A DNA stretch of 64,000 bases from Minisyncoccota bacterium (GTDB lineage Bacteria; Patescibacteriota; Minisyncoccia; Phycocordibacterales; Zambryskibacteraceae), in the NCBI GenBank assembly GCA_020059045.1, contig JAGVCW010000021.1, forward strand, positions 27,821-91,820, read 5' to 3'. Position numbers and translations under genes: made by a program. Shown one piece after another: positions 10,066-61,186 of the stretch. The notes under the pieces were generated by a model that saw only the letters and a list, made by a program, of their open reading frames with translations, was not told where the DNA came from and searched no databases. Positions within the stretch are counted from its first letter, which is position 1, and each line of letters begins with the position of its first letter.

Positions 10066-10103
10066 GATGATAAAGAGTAACCTACGACCGACAACACTAC
10101 TGA

Positions 10104-10121
10104 GTGGAAGCCGAGCTTCCA
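10104..10121. repeat. 18-nt GC hairpin GTGGAAGCCGAGCTTCCA, copy 1
   Basis: The identical 18-mer recurs at 19099-19116. Both copies lie just after the last r-protein gene before an operon interruption. Confidence 0.7.
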
Positions 10122-10154
10122 AAAATGTCTGTATTTCTTGCATAGCAGTGTAAA

Positions 10155-10182
10155 TAAAAAAGCCCCGCATGTTTATGGGGCT
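10155..10182 (-). terminator. Intrinsic terminator of the minus-strand MYG1-like gene
   Basis: AGCCCC/GGGGCT stem, with a T-run on the minus strand (A-run at 10155-10160). Confidence 0.65.
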
Positions 10183-10186
10183 ACGG

Positions 10187-11155
10187 TTATACTGTATCAA
10201 GCACAGCTTGTATCTCTGCGGCCAGTGCATTGGCTTCAGCCGCGTCTCTACTCTCATTTTCCTCAAGTTGAGCAGAGTCAACTGGTACTTCTCCAGGCAG
10301 AAGTGCAAGTTCAGCAAGTCGCAAAGCACCCTCTCTACTCTCGGCTACGATTAGGTATCGGTTTTGGTGGCAAAACACGGCATCTCCTACCCCGGTGATT
10401 TCCTGAAGTTCAAGACCTCTCATACCTGCCCACTCTCTTGGTAACAAGCGAGGCGAAGTTGTATCAGTAGCTCTGTGCCAGCGTTTCACTGTCTGTACGA
10501 GCCAGCCGACCCTTTTGGGGTACACGACGAGGACTATTTCTGGGAAGTTTCTACTTACGTAGTGATCCCAACGGCATGAGTCATCAAGGAGTAAAACCTG
10601 TGGGCTTAAGTGCTTCTCTACAGCTCTCTTGACCACCTCTTCTCCTCGAATCTCTTCTTTTGCGCGGAAGATTGCACCACTTATGTTTGCTCGTGCAAAC
10701 GCAAGAGCAATATCCCAGTCACTTGGCTTAAATGTAGCTACTGCACTTGAAATGCTGTATGGCCGGATTTCACCAGCTTTGTATCTTACCAGAGTATACC
10801 TGTTGTCTGCCGCATCTATGGGTATAACCATGTGCCTCTCAATTTCTTCAGCTATCCGAGTGTCTTGAGCAATTCGCAGTCCGAAATGTTTCCATACAAG
10901 ACCGAAGGCAGCGTATGGAACACCATTTGCTCGTCTACCAGCACCTCCTTGCATATGGTGATCGAAGTCTAGAGTTTCTGGGTTGTACACTCCTCCTACA
11001 TCAATACGTACATTGCTTTCAGCTATTACTCTTGGATCGCGGCTACGCACCACAAGAGCTTCCATGTATTCCGGAAGCAATTGTAAGGCCGCGATCGCGT
11101 ACACCTCGTCTGCATGGATGGGTCCGTCGTGGGTCACAATTTGCACAGACAACAC
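10187..11155 (-). CDS. MYG1/UPF0160-family metal-dependent hydrolase-like protein
   Basis: VTHDGPIHADEVYA, VVRSRDP and IDVGGVYNPETLDFDHH match the family layout I recall (HxGxFHxDE .. DVGG..(Y/F)DHH). Confidence 0.7.
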   Translation of the reverse strand: MLSVQIVTHDGPIHADEVYAIAALQLLPEYMEALVVRSRDPRVIAESNVRIDVGGVYNPETLDFDHHMQGGAGRRANGVPYAAFGLVWKHFGLRIAQDTRIAEEIERHMVIPIDAADNRYTLVRYKAGEIRPYSISSAVATFKPSDWDIALAFARANISGAIFRAKEEIRGEEVVKRAVEKHLSPQVLLLDDSCRWDHYVSRNFPEIVLVVYPKRVGWLVQTVKRWHRATDTTSPRLLPREWAGMRGLELQEITGVGDAVFCHQNRYLIVAESREGALRLAELALLPGEVPVDSAQLEENESRDAAEANALAAEIQAVLDTV

Positions 11156-11369
11156 CTCAAAATGGGAGTGAAATGCTTCTATAACAAAGGGCAGTACAAA
11201 ATACAGAGTACATATTTTTAGAAAATAGTCAAGATTTGCTAGATTTGCAATAAGTCTATGAGTTTATGGGTATTAGTTATTTTCTCACAATATAAGTGCT
11301 TATTTACTCCCAAAATATGGCCTAAGATAGCCCTTTTTGGGGATTTATGTAATTTAAATCAAAAAGTTC

Positions 11370-11397
11370 TTGACAAATAAATTGTATATGTTATACT
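11370..11397 (+). promoter_or_regulatory. Sigma70-type promoter
   Basis: TTGACA (11370-11375), 16-nt spacer, TATACT (11392-11397). Confidence 0.6.
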
Positions 11398-11479
11398 ATA
11401 GGTAGTAGTAAGTAGTACATTTCAGTTGCAGTTCCCCGTTCAAGGTAGTCCACTCAGCACACCTTATGGAGGTATTACC

Positions 11480-12199
11480 ATGGCTAGCAAGAAGAAGCAG
11501 CAGGTAGCAACGAGCCCGGTTCCCAGCATGCAGGCCGCGGTTGCCACGATGGCGGAAGAGGCTCCCGCCGAGAGCAGGCAGTTCTCTTCGAGCCAGCCGA
11601 AGTGGTCCCCGACTCAGTTCATTGAGACCCTGGGGAAGATCAAGGAAGAACTCCCGGCCGCCGTGTCGAACTTCAAGATCGTGAAGAAGATCGTGGGTCT
11701 CGAGATGGACGGCAAGGATGAGATGGCCTTTCGGCAGATGATTCAGCTCGCCGGGGCCGTTGCTACCAAAGCATCCCAGAAGGCGGACGCGGAAGACCCA
11801 TCAAAGGTGTATCTGGATGCCAGGAAGGTCCAGGCTGCGCTCACCGCATGTGAGCGTGCCAATTCCAATCTGGCACGCACCTTCGACAGGTACATCGGGA
11901 ACTGGCGGAAGCGGGCTGACACCATGATGTCGAACGCAAGGCGCAAGGACCCGGACGTGATCGAGCGCGAGAGTGACACAATCGCGGACAACATGGAGGC
12001 ACTGGATGAGGCACTTGAAGGAAAGAAGCCTCGTCAAGAGGTCCTCGAGATCTACAACAGGACCTTCACCCATCTTCGCGAGCTCTCAAAGGAAGCAACG
12101 GCGCTTGCTACTGAAGCTTCGAGGAGAGAGCAGATCGAAACGATCGGCTCACTCGGGGACGACATCCTCGACTCTCTCGCGGAACTCGACAGCATCTAA
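11480..12199 (+). CDS. GC-rich helical orphan protein (239 aa)
   Basis: ATG at 11480 follows GGAGG. It has its own promoter and terminator. Hand counts give 42/60 and 38/60 G+C in two lines, far above the flanks. Confidence 0.6.
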   Translation: MASKKKQQVATSPVPSMQAAVATMAEEAPAESRQFSSSQPKWSPTQFIETLGKIKEELPAAVSNFKIVKKIVGLEMDGKDEMAFRQMIQLAGAVATKASQKADAEDPSKVYLDARKVQAALTACERANSNLARTFDRYIGNWRKRADTMMSNARRKDPDVIERESDTIADNMEALDEALEGKKPRQEVLEIYNRTFTHLRELSKEATALATEASRREQIETIGSLGDDILDSLAELDSI

Positions 12200-12217
12200 G
12201 TGCTGCGAGCAGTAGTA

Positions 12218-12254
12218 CCCCACGAAAAACCCCCAAGGTATCGTGGGGTTTTTC
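12218..12254 (+). terminator. Intrinsic terminator
   Basis: CCCCACGA / TCGTGGGG 8-bp stem followed by TTTTTC. Confidence 0.7.
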
Positions 12255-12472
12255 TTTTATTGCAATTGCGGAGAATACCATGACAGCTAGGCTGCATGGG
12301 ATGAATCCGCAAATACATACTATATGTCGGCGGAGCCGACTCCTCTTGCAACAAAGTTTGCCCTGATGCCTCGTCCTGCTACTCGCCGAGGCTTTGCGAG
12401 GGAATAGCTTACTGCGATTATAGGACGAGGCCAATTTTATTAAGATAATAATCTTTCCTGTATAATTTATAT

Positions 12473-13441
12473 ATGGAATACAAAACTATTATTTTGCCTA
12501 CTAGGCCTCAGGTGGATACTGTTATTTCTATATTCGTATTAAAGCACTTTGGTGAAAGTTTCTTCCCTGGTATTAAGACTGCTAGCTATGAGTTCATGTC
12601 CAACTTACCAGCTGGTGCGAGCGAAGAGAGCTTGGCAGAGGAAGGAAGGCTCCCAATAGATATTGGTGGTGGACGATTTGATCATCACAACAAAGAGGAG
12701 AAAACCACTGTTCTAAATCTTTTGACTAGCTTTCTTGCTCAAGGGAATAATCCTGCTTTAATAAAACTCAAGAAGTTTGTAGAAAGAGATGATTTTTATG
12801 GTAAAGGAATAATATCCTCTGACCCCCTTGATCGTGCTTTCGGTTTGCCCGGGCTTATTGCTTGTCTTAATAAAAAGTATTCAAGTAACCCAGCGAAAGT
12901 GCTGGATATAATTCTTCCAGTTGTTGATGCGTACTACGAAGAAGAAGAGAAGAGGGCAATAGGAATGCCTCTTGAACTTAAGGAGAAAATAGCAAATGGT
13001 AAAGCTAGAGTATTTAATACAGAGCAGAGAGGCAGAAAACTTAAATGCATTTTCATAGAAAGCGATAACATAAGTCTACCGGGTTTTCTTCGATCTAAGA
13101 TTGGAGGGGAGCACGATGTGATTGCAATAAGGCTATCGTCTGGACACACAAATATTCTTACGAGTCTCAAAAATACAGTTGATTTGCGTTCACTCGCAGT
13201 GCTTATTCGCTTACAAGAAGCCGAGGCGCGAGGTGTGAAGCTAGATGGAGTGCCGGAAGATTTAGCAGTACCGGGTAAAATCGATGAAGTACTTAATTGG
13301 TACTACGATACAGCTACTAACTCTTTACTAAATGGTGGTCCTAATCCAAGTGAGACCGACCCAACGGGAATAGCATCTTTCGAATTTGAAAAAATAATGG
13401 AAATAGGGCTCTCTGAGAAACTCTGGTCTCCATCACGATAA
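12473..13441 (+). CDS. Divergent UPF0160/MYG1-like paralog that has lost the N-terminal metal motif
   Basis: Keeps IDIGGGRFDHH. Where the other copy has THDGPIHADE, this one has LPTRPQVDTV. Composition is AT-rich (20/60 G+C in line 12481). Confidence 0.45.
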   Translation: MEYKTIILPTRPQVDTVISIFVLKHFGESFFPGIKTASYEFMSNLPAGASEESLAEEGRLPIDIGGGRFDHHNKEEKTTVLNLLTSFLAQGNNPALIKLKKFVERDDFYGKGIISSDPLDRAFGLPGLIACLNKKYSSNPAKVLDIILPVVDAYYEEEEKRAIGMPLELKEKIANGKARVFNTEQRGRKLKCIFIESDNISLPGFLRSKIGGEHDVIAIRLSSGHTNILTSLKNTVDLRSLAVLIRLQEAEARGVKLDGVPEDLAVPGKIDEVLNWYYDTATNSLLNGGPNPSETDPTGIASFEFEKIMEIGLSEKLWSPSR

Positions 13442-13486
13442 GCCAAATACCCTTTATATTAGCCACGTAATGGTCTATAAAAATCC

Positions 13487-13515
13487 TTGACTTTTATAGA
13501 CCATTATGCTATTAT
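13487..13515 (+). promoter_or_regulatory. Sigma70-type promoter
   Basis: TTGACT (13487-13492), 17-nt spacer, TATTAT (13510-13515). Confidence 0.55.
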
Positions 13516-13564
13516 TATACAAGAACAGCAGTTTCACACACCGACCCTTTCACAAGGAGTTTGC

Positions 13565-14155
13565 ATGGTAAAAAGCAAGGAAGTCGTCGACCCCGCATTT
13601 GTCGGAGAAGTGGAAGCGGCGCTCGTGTACCTCACGGTGCCCGGCAATCTGAAGTATCTTATACCCGGGTGGGTAAAAGAGGCGGACTTCTCGAATACTC
13701 CAAAGTCCGAGCGCCAGATGGCCCCACGATCCGATAAGTTGTTCCAAGTTGCACAAGCGAGGATGGATGGGGTGCTCGGGGATCTTGCCGGCGCTGGTTT
13801 CCTCCCCTCTGAAGTGTTTTATCTGAATCGGGATGGTGGCGCGCGGCGGGTTCGTATCACATGCAAGCGCTTTGGCGCACCGCTGACACTCGATCAGGTG
13901 CAGTCTCTCATTCCCCTCACTACCGAGCGGATATGGGATGTGATGGCTCATCGGACGGCTGCTACCAGGAACATTCCATGGGAGCACATTTCGATCAATG
14001 CCGGACGCCCCGATCATGCTCCAGAAGGGGGATTCGAAGCGGTTCGCGTGGTCGAAGGTCGAGTCTCGGTAGTTTCCCTTCTCAACACGGACGAGCTGCG
14101 GAAGGCGTCTGAGTCCATCATCGGCCTCCTCGAATCGCTGCAGATAACACGCTAA
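13565..14155 (+). CDS. GC-rich orphan protein (196 aa)
   Basis: ATG at 13565 follows AAGGAG, downstream of the 13487 promoter, and a terminator follows. The 13550..14182 minus-strand ORF is its mirror. Confidence 0.55.
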   Translation: MVKSKEVVDPAFVGEVEAALVYLTVPGNLKYLIPGWVKEADFSNTPKSERQMAPRSDKLFQVAQARMDGVLGDLAGAGFLPSEVFYLNRDGGARRVRITCKRFGAPLTLDQVQSLIPLTTERIWDVMAHRTAATRNIPWEHISINAGRPDHAPEGGFEAVRVVEGRVSVVSLLNTDELRKASESIIGLLESLQITR

Positions 14156-14183
14156 TCCTCCTTGCGATAACAGGGGGGTCAAC

Positions 14184-14212
14184 GAGCCAGACAGAAATGT
14201 CTGGCTCTTTTC
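14184..14212 (+). terminator. Intrinsic terminator
   Basis: GAGCCAGAC / GTCTGGCTC stem followed by a T-run. Confidence 0.7.
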
Positions 14213-14219
14213 TATTTAA

Positions 14220-14246
14220 TTGACAACAAGTGTCTATTTCTATAAT
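14220..14246 (+). promoter_or_regulatory. Restart promoter for rpsS and the rest of the S10 operon
   Basis: TTGACA (14220-14225) and TATAAT (14241-14246) with a short 15-nt spacer. A GAAGCTC/GAGCTTT hairpin plus T-run follows in the leader. Confidence 0.5.
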
Positions 14247-14349
14247 ATCTTGAGAAGCTCATCCGAGCTTTTTGTATTCTAATTTTAGTTTTAGTAGCTG
14301 GGCAGGAGTAACCCTTCGACGAGCTCAGGGTAAAAATCTAAAGATTTTT

Positions 14350-14709
14350 GTGACACGATCATCAAAAAAAGGCCCCTATGTATATGAGCGCCTTCTGAAG
14401 AAAATTGAAGGCAAAAAGCCCGAGCAAGCTGGGGTTATTAAGACATGGGCAAGGGACAGCCAGATCGCTCCCGAGATGGTTGGCTACACATTTGGAGTAC
14501 ATAATGGTAAGGATCATATTGAAGTTTTTGTAACTGAAGACATGGTGGGTCATAGACTCGGCGAATTCTCACCTACACGTAAGTTCGTTAAACATGGCGG
14601 TAAGATGCAGAAAGAACTTGAGCAGAAGAAGAAAGAATCAGAAATAGCATCTGCTCAAGCGGCCAAAGCCTCTGTAAGTGCAGGAGCAAATACAGTACCG
14701 GCGAAGTAG
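14350..14709 (+). CDS. rpsS: 30S ribosomal protein S19 with a C-terminal tail
   Basis: I set the start to GTG 14350 (..[15 protein letters not shown]). [21 protein letters not shown] core. Confidence 0.9.
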
Positions 14710-15929: not shown

Positions 15930-16396
15930 TTGTTCTACTTGTTATAGTTGTTCTATATGTCAGAGAGATTTCAAGGATATAGGTTTGAAAAATTGGAAGT
16001 TTGGCAGGTGGGAATGCGTATAGTAAGTAAGGTATATTCAATTACGAAAAGGTTTCCTAAAGACGAGACCTACGCCCTGTCTGACCAGTTAAAAAGAGCA
16101 GCCACTTCGATAGTTTTAAACTTGGCAGAAGGCTCAGGACAGCCAACAAAAAAGTTATTCTCTCTTTATATTGAACGTGCCAAGTCCTCAACACTTGAAT
16201 GTGTGGCTTGTACAAAAATTGCTGTTCAGGAAAAACTTGTAGAACCTGATGAGGTTAAATCTTTGGAAGAGCTACTTGCGGAAGAGTATTTTAAACTTAT
16301 TGCGCTAGCAAAATCTATGAGGTAAGATCTTCCTACTCTAGCTTGTAACCTATCTAACACCTATAACAACTAGAACATATATAACACTTACAACCA
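15930..16396. repeat. Family-A hairpin element, copy A3, with an ORF inserted at its apex
   Basis: Left arm TGTTCTACTTGTTATAG pairs with right arm CTATAACAACTAGAACA. The apex ATGTCAGAG supplies ATG 15957 of the enclosed ORF. Confidence 0.65.
15948..16325 (+). CDS. Four-helix-bundle protein of the 23S rRNA intervening-sequence protein family
   Basis: YRFEKLEVWQ..FPKDETYALSDQLKRAATSIVLNLAEGSG..AKSSTLE matches the family pattern I recall. The start is TTG 15948 or ATG 15957. Confidence 0.75.
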   Translation: MFYMSERFQGYRFEKLEVWQVGMRIVSKVYSITKRFPKDETYALSDQLKRAATSIVLNLAEGSGQPTKKLFSLYIERAKSSTLECVACTKIAVQEKLVEPDEVKSLEELLAEEYFKLIALAKSMR

Positions 16397-19084: not shown

Positions 19085-19120
19085 CGTGGAAGCGAAGCGT
19101 GGAAGCCGAGCTTCCACGGA
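19085..19120. repeat. GC hairpin with the shared 18-mer GTGGAAGCCGAGCTTCCA, copy 2
   Basis: CCGTGGAAGC..GCTTCCACGG stem. The 18-mer at 19099-19116 is identical to 10104-10121. Confidence 0.7.
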
Positions 19121-19184: not shown

Positions 19185-19391
19185 ATGACAGAAGAATCAC
19201 TAAACTTAAACGAGACAAAGGAGAAGAGCGCGTTTTCCATGGGCGATCATTCAGATTTTATTGCAAGAGAGCTTGACCAAGTGAATAGGGAGTTACTCGA
19301 TGTAAGTTTAGACATACCAGATGGGGAGGTATCAGGTTTGGAAGAAGTGTATGATGCGATGATAAGGGATCTAAAAATCGAAAATAAATAA
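19185..19391 (+). CDS. Small acidic hypothetical protein
   Basis: 68-codon ATG ORF. No motif. Confidence 0.35.
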   Translation: MTEESLNLNETKEKSAFSMGDHSDFIARELDQVNRELLDVSLDIPDGEVSGLEEVYDAMIRDLKIENK

Positions 19392-19410
19392 TTCAAGTTC
19401 TCACTTTCGT

Positions 19411-19752
19411 ATGAACAAATTTTTATCTTTAGTAACGCGTATTCTGGGTGAGCTAGAATTTTCGCAAGAAAACAAAGAAAAAGTTGCATATGATCTCAAT
19501 CGCCTAATTATGACAAAGGTTGTCATAGCACTTCTTGATGAGGCCCCAGAGAATGTTCAAACTGAAGTTGAAAAACTTTTAAGTGCTGGTGAAACACTTG
19601 AAGTTGCAAATATCCTCAAGTCTACATTTACGACTGAAAGATTCGAAGAAGTAAGCCTTCATATTACTCGAGATGTGGTTCACAAATACTTAAGCGAATT
19701 GTTTGCAAAAACTCACAAGGAAAACAAAGAGAAACTTGTCGCTTCACTCTAA
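19411..19752 (+). CDS. Hypothetical helical protein
   Basis: 113-codon ATG ORF that ends at the hairpin shared with the convergent RNA gene. Confidence 0.4.
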   Translation: MNKFLSLVTRILGELEFSQENKEKVAYDLNRLIMTKVVIALLDEAPENVQTEVEKLLSAGETLEVANILKSTFTTERFEEVSLHITRDVVHKYLSELFAKTHKENKEKLVASL

Positions 19753-19780: not shown

Positions 19781-20281
19781 ACTTTTGTATAAAAACAAAC
19801 CCGCTCCTTGGTGAGGGCGGGCGATAGTGGGAAGAAAACTTCCAATGGTTTGGAAACTGCATGAAACCGGGTACTTCCTCCCTTTGTCTAGTCAATGGCG
19901 ATTGGGCGCCTATGACATCCTCTTGGCTGTAAACCTCGTAACTCACCATGAGTTACGGCAGGCTAACGCCAACTAAGCTGAGGACTTCGACTGGGCTGTC
20001 TCTGCACGTGGTCCCGAATGAGACGCCTAGTGAGCGAATGACCCGAACGCAGACTACCCGGTTTCACACTTTGTAATGAACTTATATCTTGCACTCTCTT
20101 TCGAGAGATGATTTCGTACCCTGGGGCGGCGAGCGGGCCGAAGCGCCGTCACGACCCCAGGGACTTCCTCGATATTTAACCTCTGATGCCGAGTACCGCA
20201 TCGGAGGCGATCCCCGTTAGGACGTAAGCGAATGCACCGGTTTAGGGCACATCACTGTATCCGAGCCCGCATGGGGGAGCT
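19781..20281 (-). ncRNA. Roughly 500-nt GC-rich structured RNA with RNase P RNA-like motifs; identity unresolved
   Basis: About 640 bp hold no ORF apart from one 66-aa shadow. Consensus promoter upstream; terminator CCCGC..GCGGG plus UUUGUUUUU at 19781-19811. GAAA-capped hairpin, 8-bp hairpin at 19928-19946, 12-bp long-range helix, and GAGGAAGUCC and ACCCGGUUUCA motifs. Confidence 0.6.
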
Positions 20282-20286
20282 TGTGA

Positions 20287-20314
20287 GCTTATGTATATTA
20301 TAGCATGTACACGT
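20287..20314 (-). promoter_or_regulatory. Consensus sigma70 promoter of the structured RNA
   Basis: The minus strand reads TTGACA (20314-20309), a 16-nt spacer, then TATAAT (20292-20287). Confidence 0.7.
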
Positions 20315-20592
20315 TATTTGTCAAGGAGTTTCTCATTATCTTTTCTGTGACACATGAAATATGGCTAAAACTAAGGCTTATTTGAATATCACTTTAAAGT
20401 AGAGGGAAATTTGTTGGCAAGTTCTTGAAATTATCCGCTTAACCCTTATTTTATTGACTTTATACGGCTCAATTGCTAAGCTGTTGCAAAGCTTTTGGAA
20501 GCTTTTTTCTTTACTTAATCGCTTCATTCGTCAATATTCTTCCTTTTGAGGGCTTTCGCTCATGCGAGGTCGCTAGAGGATAAACAATATTT

Positions 20593-41131: not shown

Positions 41132-41243
41132 GTCTCTATCATAGAGCAAAAGCACCCTGAGGGTGTTTTTGCTATTTCGCTCCCAGGTGGTTTACCACGA
41201 GCGAGCCTTCGACCTGGCTCAGGCCAGGGCGAAGCGAGTCGAG

Positions 41244-41678
41244 TGGAGATGGGCGGAATCGAACCGCCGTGCAATAGAAGAGATGAAAGATTTCTACAAG
41301 AGGTAGTTTGTTTCAATCTGCCTGTTGGCAGATATTTAGACTCTGTAAGTATGGAACAAACAAAATCTTACAAAGTCGAGCTTCTACATTTCGGAAACAA
41401 GCAAAGCAATTTGTTTCCAGAGTCTCAAGTTATTACGCGAGCAACTTGTTATGAGACATCACAAGTGCTAACGTCGCTTAGGCCGACCCAGACACCGAAG
41501 TGTCGGGTTAAGAGGCGTAAACGAAAGCGAAATCCTTAGCTCCAAAATATGGAGAAACTAGAGACCCAGCTTTTGCGACAATGCTGTTTGCAATTATCGG
41601 TTGTGGCGGATTTAAGAGTCACCACAGCTCTCCCTTGCATCTATCAAATGAATTCTACTGTCTAGGCCGATCATCCCC
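41244..41678 (-). ncRNA. ssrA: tmRNA
   Basis: 5' GGGGAUGAUCGGCCUAGACAG and 3' GGCGGUUCGAUUCCGCCCAUCUCCA. The acceptor stem GGGGAUG/CAUCUCC has the G3:U identity pair. smpB lies 350 nt away. Confidence 0.85.
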
Positions 41679-41746: not shown

Positions 41747-42019
41747 CTAATTGTTACGCCCTATTTTGTCTAAATATTTCTTTAGTATTTTCTTTTTTTC
41801 TCTTGCTGACCACAATGTCTTAAGAAAACGCTCCCTTTGGAATGCATCTGACTTGTCTAAGTATTTTTCTTGGTGAATAACAACAAGAGGTCTGCGCGAT
41901 CTAGTAGAAAGTACTTTTCCACTATTGTGCGCTTGAATTCTTTTTTGTATATTCTTCGTGCATCCAACATAGAGCCCACTGTCTTTGGTACTAAGCAATA
42001 TGTATACAAAATAGTGCAT
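41747..42019 (-). CDS. GIY-YIG nuclease-superfamily small protein
   Basis: YFVYILLSTKDSGLYVGCTKNIQKRIQAHN is the GIY..YVG..R..H pattern. Confidence 0.75.
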   Translation of the reverse strand: MHYFVYILLSTKDSGLYVGCTKNIQKRIQAHNSGKVLSTRSRRPLVVIHQEKYLDKSDAFQRERFLKTLWSAREKKKILKKYLDKIGRNN

Positions 42020-48739: not shown

Positions 48740-48802
48740 AATTTCTTTCTAATTAATAATTTGAAACTACGTTTAGTATATCAAGTTATGCAAGAATATT
48801 TG

Positions 48803-48876
48803 TCCACCCTCCACGATTTGAACGTGGGACCCTCGAGGTATAAGCTCGATGCTCTAACCAACTGAGCTAAGGGTGG
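48803..48876 (-). tRNA. tRNA-Ile with a genomically encoded UAU anticodon
   Basis: Hand-folded cloverleaf: CCACCCT ta GCTC agttggtta GAGC a TCGAG CTTATAC CTCGA gggtc CCACG ttcaaat CGTGG AGGGTGG a. No CCA is encoded. Confidence 0.8.
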
Positions 48877-61079: not shown

Positions 61080-61106
61080 GTTCAAAGTTGCCAATCTGGC
61101 GGAGAG
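61080..61106. repeat. 27-bp att-like core, copy 1 (tRNA-Ser 3' end plus 17 nt of downstream flank)
   Basis: GTTCAAAGTTGCCAATCTGGCGGAGAG is identical to 62654-62680. Confidence 0.9.
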
Positions 61107-61186
61107 AGTGGGATTCGAACCCACGGTTCCGGTAAAGGAACGACGGTTTAGTAAACCGTTGATTTAAACCACTCATCCATCTCTCC
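61097..61186 (-). tRNA. Class II tRNA (Ser-type long variable arm); anticodon loop UUACUAA reads ACU
   Basis: GGAGAGA tg GAT gagtggtttaa ATC a ACGGT TTACTAA ACCGT, variable arm cGTTCCtttaccGGAACc, GTGGG ttcgaat CCCAC TCTCTCC g CCA. Confidence 0.8.

Follow-up and report, generated by a model that had tools for sequence, protein, structure and literature searches.

A divergent MYG1-related family with a DHH-type fold, encoded between rplB and rpsS in a clade of Patescibacteria

A 64,000-nucleotide (nt) stretch of the genome of a Minisyncoccota bacterium (GenBank assembly GCA_020059045.1, contig JAGVCW010000021.1, positions 27,821 to 91,820), referred to here as the window, was analyzed for the four genes that separate rplB from rpsS in its ribosomal protein operon, and in particular for the third of these, ORF3. 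On the plus strand, rplB, which encodes ribosomal protein L2 (9226–10065; Pfam Ribosomal_L2_N and L2_C), is the closing gene of the upstream half of a split S10 operon, and its product is 74–76% identical to the L2 of relatives. The opening gene of the downstream half is rpsS, which encodes S19 (14350–14709, plus strand; Pfam Ribosomal_S19). Its GTG start at 14350 agrees with that of relatives, and its product is 80–87% identical to theirs from that position on. The list of open reading frames (ORFs), together with Pfam matches of the flanks, placed four genuine genes in the gap, in the same layout that the original prediction had described from the sequence. ORF1 (10187 to 11146 or 11155, minus strand) is a MYG1/UPF0160-family gene matching PF03690. 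ORF2 (11480–12199, plus strand) encodes a helical protein of 239 amino acids (aa), supported by positional homologues and by the periodicity of G+C across codon positions. ORF3 (12473–13441, plus strand) encodes a 322-aa protein with the fold of a DHH/DHHA1 phosphoesterase, as assigned from its homologues, an AlphaFold2 (AF2) model and profile comparison with hhalign. ORF4 (13565–14155, plus strand) encodes a 196-aa alpha/beta protein, supported by homologues and by its substitution pattern. The G+C content was 58% for ORF2 and 57% for ORF4, against 42% for the window, and the two genes were called as the only regions of such G+C within it.

The separation of rplB from rpsS is a trait of the whole clade (Minisyncoccia/Paceibacteria-type Patescibacteria) and not a recent insertion. 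Close relatives with ORF3 homologues of 54–68% identity were examined (loci L001–L004, L011–L013, L015, L016 and L022, and the P0004 contig), and in 11 of 11 the ORF3 homologue lay between rplB and rpsS, or a short contig showed one of the two flanks. The usual order was rplB, (YbjQ), rplJ, rplL, u185, an MscS-like gene, (ORF2 homologue), ORF3 homologue, ORF4 homologue, rpsS. ORF3-type genes are thereby tied to ribosomal protein genes beyond this genome, as the original prediction had anticipated. Compared with the canonical S10-spc operon (rpsJ-rplCDWB-rpsS-rplV-rpsC-rplP...), the gene order of the window is canonical on both sides of the gap. In the canonical operon rplB and rpsS are adjacent, whereas the whole clade has 4–9 kb between them and an rpsS with a conserved promoter and leader hairpin of its own. 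The window copy carries two more insertions, one at 15948–16325 and one of 1.5 kb between rplE and rpsN. Specific to this genome were the MYG1 gene, a structured spacer of ~210 nt before ORF3, and the absence of rplJ-rplL-u185-MscS both from the gap and from the entire 64-kb window. Literature searches found nothing specific on splits of ribosomal protein operons in Patescibacteria.

The genes had been described as a 4.3-kb island, and we considered whether foreign DNA had recently landed between rplB and rpsS. Such an origin would account for the G+C of ORF2 and ORF4, which is 15 points above that of the genome, for the promoter and terminator carried by each gene, and for a MYG1 gene that at this position is unique to this genome. 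It would also fit the other cargo found at this junction elsewhere, namely a Cas1-like gene in L001 (5485–6186) and an unknown 435-aa ORF in L032 (17609–18916). However, homologues of ORF2 to ORF4 are found at this position in relatives with an L2 of only ~75% identity, with ORF3 and ORF4 common to the close relatives. Among 5.8 billion proteins, homologues of the G+C-rich families are confined to the clade. No flanking repeats were found around the insert, and no integrase, transposase or other mobility gene was present among the window ORFs (ORF list and Pfam). The G+C at third codon positions (GC3) of ORF1 and ORF3 is host-like. The features particular to this genome are limited to MYG1 and a gap that has lost rplJ-rplL-u185-MscS. 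We therefore rate a recently acquired island as distinctly improbable, and for ORF2 to ORF4 it is largely refuted by synteny. In this group, insertions may recur at the rplB–rpsS junction.

ORF1 matched the PF03690 MYG1_exonuc model over its full length (model positions 1–318 of 318; E-value 1.2e-50, 173.3 bits against a cut-off of 22.1) and matched solved MYG1 exonuclease chains in the PDB with an E-value of 1.8e-24. The motifs THDGPIHADE, IDVGG and FDHH were all intact, as in six other MYG1 ORFs, and the earlier assignment of ORF1 to MYG1/UPF0160 with an intact N-terminal motif was confirmed. The public annotation gives a 319-aa protein from a GTG at 11146, while the longest ORF begins at 11155. 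A 292-aa form on the same contig, the representative of its cluster, bears the Joint Genome Institute (JGI) name "uncharacterized UPF0160 family protein". The GC3 of ORF1 was 0.40, similar to host genes. No close relatives of ORF1 were found among 185,579 GTDB species-representative genomes, and a MYG1 gene occupied the rplB–rpsS position in this genome only. Judging from its domain match and motifs, ORF1 is a bona fide and ordinary member of the known, biochemically under-studied MYG1/UPF0160 family. This family belongs to the DHH superfamily, and examples are human MYG1 and yeast YER156C. To our knowledge, bacterial MYG1 proteins are uncharacterized, and the function of MYG1 is known from eukaryotes only. 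Human MYG1 is a 3'-5' RNA exonuclease in which DHH is the catalytic motif, and a DHH-to-ALL mutant is inactive (PMC6582341).

ORF3 gave a different result. No Pfam match (E-value up to 0.1) and no NCBIfam match were obtained for it, and PF03690 matched none of 65 diverse members of its family. Searches of the PDB with ORF3 (phmmer) and with the family profile (hmmsearch) returned only noise and did not recover the MYG1 chains. Alignment of ORF3 with ORF1 by BLASTP was limited to 12 identities in 41 positions, around DIGGGRFDHH. Comparison of profiles by hhalign, however, aligned the diverse ORF3-family profile (A2) with a seven-sequence MYG1 profile at a probability of 97.3% (E-value 2e-11, 149 columns), and a second ORF3-family profile (A1) with the same MYG1 profile at 94.9%. 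The alignment pairs H-x-x-P-x-H-x-D of MYG1 with P-T-R-P-Q-V-D of ORF3, and DVGG...FDHH with DIGGGRFDHH. The UPF0160 hidden Markov model that had been proposed as a check on both genes thus recognized ORF1 over its full length and left ORF3 unmatched, with the MYG1 homology of the latter seen only between profiles. Considering this alignment, ORF3 is best read as a genuine but remote homologue of MYG1, in a separate family for which there is no existing model.

This family is large. ORF3 had 378 homologues at E-values up to 1e-3 in a collection clustered at 90% identity, and 728 representatives at 50% identity. All named homologues were from Patescibacteria (under the labels Minisyncoccota, Parcubacteria, Paceibacterota and Patescibacteria), which points to a large, uncharacterized family that is apparently restricted to this group. 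Literature searches found no paper describing it.

The AF2 model of ORF3 was of high confidence (mean predicted local distance difference test score, pLDDT, 93.7) and showed the two-domain DHH plus DHHA1 fold, with a long helical insert (residues 141–174) between the two domains. Its structural neighbours included the di- and cyclic-nucleotide phosphodiesterases GdpP, DhhP, PggH and TM1595. The residues D15, D63, D70-H71-H72, D107, D117, D120, E157 and E158 were invariant in 65 homologues of 47–68% identity, as was N287-G288-G289. In the N-terminal motif, LPTRPQVDT, P9 and D15 were invariant and Q13 was present in at least 90% of the same homologues, and Asp alone was retained of the MYG1 motif. 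ORF3 shares with MYG1/UPF0160 the N-terminal domain, the D-x-G-G...F-D-H-H block and the two-domain architecture, but where MYG1 has H-x-G-x-x-H-x-D-E, ORF3 has P-T-R-P-Q-x-D-T. DHH/DHHA1 phosphoesterases in general have a motif I of DxD with a His, and a DHHA1 motif of GGGH. ORF3 has a single Asp (D15) in motif I and N287-G288-G289, without a His, at the DHHA1 position. It also adds the helical insert at 141–174, matches neither the Pfam DHH nor the DHHA1 model, and is only 8–16% identical to the NrnA/NrnB nanoRNases, pAp phosphatase, GdpP/DhhP/PggH, family II pyrophosphatase and RecJ. ORF3 is best called a new, uncharacterized family-level variant of the DHH superfamily, since it has the DHH fold and motif III, but PF03690 failed to match and both the motif I His and the DHHA1 His are missing.

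The original prediction had noted that ORF3 keeps DIGGGRFDHH without the N-terminal His/His and proposed that it may be catalytically dead. The first part agrees with the divergent MYG1 relationship and the retained D..GG..FDHH. The second is not supported, given the invariance of D15, D63, D70-H71-H72, D107, D117 and D120. Because the residues of catalytic type are invariant and the replacement of the His is itself fixed, the site appears to be functional and re-tuned rather than decayed, and we conclude that ORF3 is probably an active metal-dependent phosphoesterase. As a separate observation, ChrB_C (PF09828) matched 10 of 65 distant members of the ORF3 family, mostly below threshold (best E-value 3.5e-7). 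In P0267, the sole member for which coordinates were checked, the match (residues 10–140) fell on the N-terminal DHH-like domain, to which ChrB_C may be distantly related. We note this as a lead only.

Fusions of the ORF3 domain were examined in 228 full-length family members, with extensions counted at 120 aa or longer. Extensions were N-terminal in 72 members, C-terminal in 12 and on both sides in one (~37%). All eight of the extensions inspected were of the 2H phosphoesterase type. Seven of these contained two clean H-x-T/S-x motifs ~90 aa apart, and the eighth, in P0126, was less clear. C-terminal extensions exceeded the Pfam thresholds for PF13563 and PF02834, and precomputed matches included PF08302, tRNA_lig_CPD. 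That the two domains are fused in either order argues strongly for a functional coupling to phosphoesterase chemistry on 2',3'-cyclic phosphates or 2'-5' linkages. The domain of the 2H phosphoesterases (LigT/ThpR, PF02834/PF13563; the tRNA-ligase CPD domain, PF08302) is thus fused to ORF3 relatives at either terminus, while the window ORF3 is an unfused 322-aa core that is linked to this chemistry via its fused relatives only. No such fusion was seen in the seven MYG1 ORFs examined, in contrast to its frequency in the ORF3 family. Searches of the literature found nothing specific on fusions of 2H and DHH domains. ORF4 was also considered as a detached 2H domain. This was rejected, as ORF4 co-occurs with fused 2H-ORF3 proteins, its HxT/S motifs have a spacing of only ~14 residues, and Pfam gave no match for it.

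The same fold and fusions could be read in terms of nucleotide signalling. Together with its MYG1 partner and, in relatives, the 2H domain, ORF3 would then be a second-messenger or anti-defence phosphodiesterase degrading signalling nucleotides such as cyclic di- or oligonucleotides, 2'-5' oligoadenylates, pApA or pGpG. The identity of its structural neighbours as di- and cyclic-nucleotide phosphodiesterases is in keeping with such a role, and cleavage of 2'-5' and cyclic oligonucleotides is known within the 2H family. However, no cyclase, cyclic-oligonucleotide-based anti-phage signalling system (CBASS), CRISPR type III or other defence gene recurs beside the family, and PADLOC and PHROGs gave no match. 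The neighbours that do recur are FtsH, ribosomal protein genes and YraN. The family is also near single-copy across many species, which fits a housekeeping function. We consider a signalling role unlikely.

Linkage between MYG1 and ORF3-type genes was assessed in 74 loci (±10 kb around the ORF3 homologue) from species-representative genomes. A full-length MYG1 ORF was found 40–2300 nt from the ORF3 homologue in six of these (L032, L044, L050, L060, L061 and L077), in tandem, divergent and convergent orientations. The ORF3 homologues of the six loci were 38–52% identical and not nearest relatives, and the MYG1 proteins were 24–47% identical. The linkage is therefore not a single inherited accident. 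All MYG1 matches in the ±10-kb loci fell within 2.4 kb of the ORF3 homologue, for which random placement gives (4.8/20)^6, or ~2e-4. If each genome of ~1 Mb is assumed to have one MYG1 gene, ~0.4 adjacencies would be expected in 74 genomes against the six observed. In L032, a 2H-fused ORF3 homologue and MYG1 lie directly upstream of tuf and the S10 operon. The original prediction had named linkage in other genomes as a test of the pairing, and the linkage was found, always at short range, in these six species. The recurrent adjacency supports a functional link between MYG1 and ORF3.

A third paralogue was also identified. In 15 species (L017, L018, L027, L028, L031, L033–L036, L038, L042, L048, L071, L074 and L078), a protein of 320–396 aa is encoded upstream of the ORF3 homologue on the same strand. 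Its DHH motif is replaced, and hhalign related it to the ORF3 family at 99.8%. This paralogue and the ORF3 homologue may form a pair of enzyme and pseudo-enzyme. Taken with the MYG1 neighbours, these third paralogues make adjacent paralogues of the superfamily a recurring theme.

Pairing had been proposed in a stronger form for the window itself, in which an active MYG1 and a dead paralogue would target the ribosome as a toxin/antidote or enzyme/regulator pair. The closeness of the two paralogues here and in six other species fits this proposal, as do the loss of both N-terminal His residues from ORF3 and the degenerate upstream copies without DHH in 15 loci. DHH enzymes are usually dimers, so that heteromeric pairs of enzyme and pseudo-enzyme are conceivable. 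PMC4081065 provides one example of a dimeric DHH enzyme. Against this, the catalytic-type residues of ORF3 are invariant, and ORF3 is the conserved partner, occurring without a MYG1 neighbour in >90% of loci. In the window, ORF2 separates the two genes, which are divergent and have separate promoters, and at ~320 aa each with housekeeping neighbours they are unlike toxin-antitoxin genes. PADLOC and PHROGs returned nothing for ORF1, ORF3, ORF4 and P0007, and for ORF2 only two marginal, sub-threshold PADLOC matches (E-values 0.003–0.008). The toxin/antidote proposal found no support, and we regard a ribosome-directed pair of this kind as quite improbable.

ORF2 and ORF4 had been described as orphans, but both have positional homologues beside ORF3 homologues. 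In 5.8 billion proteins, ORF2 matched itself only. A first-round phmmer search against the loci found a homologue in L013 (8772–9362; E-value 2.8e-7), and iteration added homologues in L004, L012, L008 and L009, all of which immediately precede the ORF3 homologue. The ORF2 family is fast-evolving, at ~20% identity. ORF4 homologues were found at 86% and 57% identity, with 16 family members in the loci and tandem copies in two of them. Wherever a locus of the 57–68% identity group was long enough, the gene next downstream of the ORF3 homologue was an ORF4 homologue, and the family as a whole diverges to 13–56% identity. No homologues of either family were found outside the clade in the 5.8 billion proteins, and Pfam and NCBIfam gave no match for ORF2 or ORF4. 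A foreign origin of the two genes is unlikely because they lack homologues outside the clade and their position is conserved. An AF2 model of ORF4 built from three sequences was too poor for a fold search (pLDDT 51). The family alignment of ORF4 also indicated an apparent circular permutation. The segment "YxTxP...IPxWV" is N-terminal in ORF4 of the window type and C-terminal in the L012, L003, L016 and L004 types (for example, window 13565–14155 compared with L012 2384–2977 and L003 9626–10204).

The G+C-rich segments might instead be structured noncoding RNAs, with the ORFs being compositional accidents. G+C-rich segments with their own promoter and terminator in an A+T-rich genome are a classic signature of noncoding RNA, ORF4 is overlapped by an antisense ORF of 210 aa, and the same operon contains an ORF-free, G+C-rich transcript candidate at 19790–20290. 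The coding evidence, however, was clear. Both genes show strong 3-nt periodicity, with GC3 of 0.6–0.95 against G+C at second codon positions (GC2) of 0.30–0.45, the latter being ordinary. Between ORF4 and its 86%-identical homologue in L007, differences numbered 18, 13 and 63 at codon positions 1, 2 and 3, and the codon changes were 54 synonymous and 27 non-synonymous. Protein homology extended to 13–56% identity, where the DNA could not be aligned, and no Rfam match was found. The antisense ORF (13550–14182, 210 aa) was rejected as a real gene opposite ORF4, as it is not preserved in L007. The noncoding alternative is extremely improbable. ORF2 and ORF4 are real protein-coding genes that encode fast-diverging accessory proteins.

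The base composition of these genes stands apart from that of their neighbours. In the window, GC3 was 0.75 for ORF2 and 0.61 for ORF4, compared with 0.32 for ORF3 and 0.33–0.41 for the ribosomal protein genes. In L008, both G+C-rich genes reached 0.95 beside an ORF3 homologue of 0.33. In L002, L003, L004, L012 and L013 the G+C-rich genes had values of 0.64–0.90, with 0.35–0.49 for the ORF3 homologue (L002, L003 and L004). The promoters and terminator hairpins of ORF2 and ORF4 remain recognizable, with identities reaching 91% over 46 nt, while the proteins diverge fast. The GC3 anomaly might arise from GC-biased gene conversion at a recombination hotspot, or from selection on the mRNA.

The genes were found to have their own promoters and terminators, as originally predicted, and sites at 11370, 13487, 12231–12248 and 14184–14207 were conserved in relatives. 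An 18-nt hairpin, GTGGAAGCCGAGCTTCCA, follows rplB (10104–10121, plus strand) and was found by blastn of the intergenic region against the window. An identical 18-nt copy lies after rplE (19099–19116), and the hairpin has no U-tract behind it. The copies mark rplB and rplE, two points of operon interruption, and this hairpin may be an mRNA 3'-end or processing hairpin. A terminator-like hairpin for ORF1 (10155–10181, minus strand), GCCCC..GGGGC followed by a U-run, was read from the sequence, its loop exceeding the limit of the scan. ORF2 is preceded by a promoter-like site (11370–11397, plus strand) with TTGACA, a 16-nt spacer and TG-TATACT (11 of 12 consensus matches), and by a Shine-Dalgarno (SD) sequence, GGAGG, 8 nt before its ATG at 11480. 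It is followed by a terminator hairpin, CCCCACGA..TCGTGGGG, with a U-run (12217–12262, plus strand; hairpin proper 12231–12248), which shares 84–92% identity over 35–46 nt with hairpins by the ORF2 homologues in L004, L013, L008 and L009. The spacer of ~210 nt before ORF3 (12263–12472, plus strand) contains two strong hairpins, with an RNA folding z-score of −4.1 and none of 200 shuffles as stable. It had no blastn match in relatives and no Rfam match. A TATAAT lies 6 nt upstream of the ORF3 ATG, without an SD sequence, and the ORF3 mRNA may therefore be leaderless.

Between ORF3 and ORF4 is a palindrome with 31-nt arms (13455–13519, plus strand), whose loop holds the −35 element, TCCTTGAC, of a promoter-like site for ORF4 (13487–13515, plus strand). 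The arms differ between the window and L007 (1–60) yet are still complementary through compensatory changes, and the −35 and −10 elements are conserved in L007, L008 and L010. The palindrome is probably the terminator of ORF3, or an operator, overlapping the ORF4 promoter. The terminator of ORF4 (14184–14207, plus strand) consists of a 10-bp stem with a trailing U-run and is shared with L007 and L008. Transcription of rpsS had been predicted to restart from a promoter at 14220. This promoter (TTGACA, 17-nt spacer, TAATAT) and a leader hairpin, GAGAAGCUC..GAGCUUUUUG, occupy 14220–14274 on the plus strand, and a promoter of the form TTGACA, 17-nt spacer, TATACT and a leader hairpin AAGCUC..GAGCUUUU are kept upstream of rpsS in nine relatives (L002, L003, L004, L010, L011, L012, L015, L016 and L022). 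The short conserved hairpin and its U-run (14251–14274) come right after the promoter and, for the downstream half of the operon, may act as an attenuator or as a leader for autoregulation. The number of consensus promoter sites in the region was not above shuffled expectation; specific promoter and terminator sites are nonetheless conserved at orthologous positions in relatives. Rfam searches of the region (E-value up to 1) gave only chance-level matches.

Several other features of the window were recorded. The insertion between rpsC and rplP (15948–16325) encodes a four-helix bundle of 125 aa that belongs to the 23S_rRNA_IVP family (PF05635, E-value 5e-27), with a weak bAvd-like match, and is a further interruption of the same ribosomal protein operon. 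Two small plus-strand ORFs (68 and 113 aa; 19185–19752) are also inserted between rplE and rpsN, and this junction likewise holds unannotated small ORFs in relatives (L001 15509–16328; L003 13929–14437). Between the same two genes, on the minus strand, is a G+C-rich segment (~55%) of ~500 nt (19790–20330) in which ORFs do not exceed 66 aa. A promoter with perfect consensus elements (TTGACA, 17-nt spacer, TATAAT; 20326–20296, minus strand) and a terminator-like hairpin at ~19795–19830 were found in it. Its folding z-score was −5.6, and it contains GAGGAAGUCC, reminiscent of RNase P RNA. RNase P models did not match this segment, and neither Rfam at E-values up to 0.05 nor blastn against relatives gave a match. 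It is a candidate for a novel structured RNA antisense to the ribosomal protein operon. A transfer-messenger RNA gene (Rfam, 101 bits) and an adjoining small GIY-YIG gene were located at 41241–41678 and 41768–42010 on the minus strand, and the GIY-YIG gene is 51% identical to one directly upstream of rpsS in L001. ARAGORN identified two minus-strand tRNA genes, a tRNA-Ile with anticodon TAT (48802–48876) and a tRNA-Ser with anticodon ACT (61097–61186). The latter, with A at position 34, is an unusual anticodon for bacteria.

Returning to ORF3, we consider it reasonably likely that the protein is an active phosphoesterase acting on RNA or nucleotides, with a housekeeping role in RNA-end processing or turnover. 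Our confidence in any specific substrate is much lower. The conserved core of the arrangement consists of the ORF2-like helical protein, ORF3, the ORF4-like small protein, the restart promoter with its leader hairpin, and rpsS. ORF3 would hydrolyse RNA 3' ends, or short RNA or nucleotide products, after or together with the opening of 2',3'-cyclic phosphates by a 2H-type activity. Such a sequence of end-healing followed by trimming or dephosphorylation is suggested by the third of ORF3 relatives that share a polypeptide with a 2H phosphoesterase. The contribution of MYG1 to this pathway would be 3'-5' exonucleolytic trimming. That the two paralogues act on one RNA pathway is suggested by their juxtaposition, which recurs in other species. 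Independent promoters of constitutive type within the ribosomal protein cluster would tie expression to translation capacity, and the placement and promoters together point to a housekeeping function connected with translation, for example maturation of rRNA or tRNA ends or RNA turnover.

Several observations weigh against this proposal. ORF3 is without both of the N-terminal His residues of MYG1 and without the His of the DHHA1 GGGH motif, having NGG instead, and this may alter its chemistry or the stoichiometry of its metals. A role in binding without catalysis is conceivable. No 2H domain is present in the window ORF3 and no 2H gene was found in the 64 kb, where tblastn with three 2H domains gave nothing below an E-value of 0.39. 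Adjacency to MYG1 is seen in only ~8% of loci. ORF3 homologues at or below ~50% identity are mostly located elsewhere, their commonest neighbour being FtsH (upstream of ftsH in 16 loci), and the next commonest neighbour outside the close clade is the degenerate paralogue (15 loci), not ribosomal protein genes. The ribosomal context may thus be a historical accident. Finally, the proposal accounts for neither the role of ORF2 and ORF4 nor the GC3 anomaly. A broader scheme would take in both. In it, the ORF3 type, MYG1, the degenerate paralogue and 2H would make up a Patescibacteria-specific pathway of RNA 3'-end maturation and turnover, replacing exoribonucleases that such genomes may lack. The conserved promoter and terminator arms would frame ORF2 and ORF4 as hypervariable cassettes that are swapped in and out, and the extreme GC3 of these genes (up to 0.95 against 0.33) would persist either through GC-biased gene conversion at a hotspot of recombination or because selection favours mRNAs resistant to the nucleases encoded next to them. 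We offer this scheme as speculative and rather doubtful.

The loss of rplB–rpsS adjacency has a practical consequence, as this adjacency is unreliable in the clade, and this matters for phylogenomic methods that assume a contiguous block of ribosomal protein genes. Genes at GC3 values of 0.33 and 0.95 that are conserved neighbours could inform on recombination or on selection at synonymous sites. The ORF3 family offers a bacterial handle on MYG1. It spans hundreds of clusters at 50% identity, with 2H fusions, linkage to MYG1 and, in one clade, residence in the ribosomal operon, and for Patescibacteria, with their tiny genomes and poorly understood RNA metabolism, it is a concrete candidate to fill a missing activity in RNA-end processing or nanoRNA degradation.

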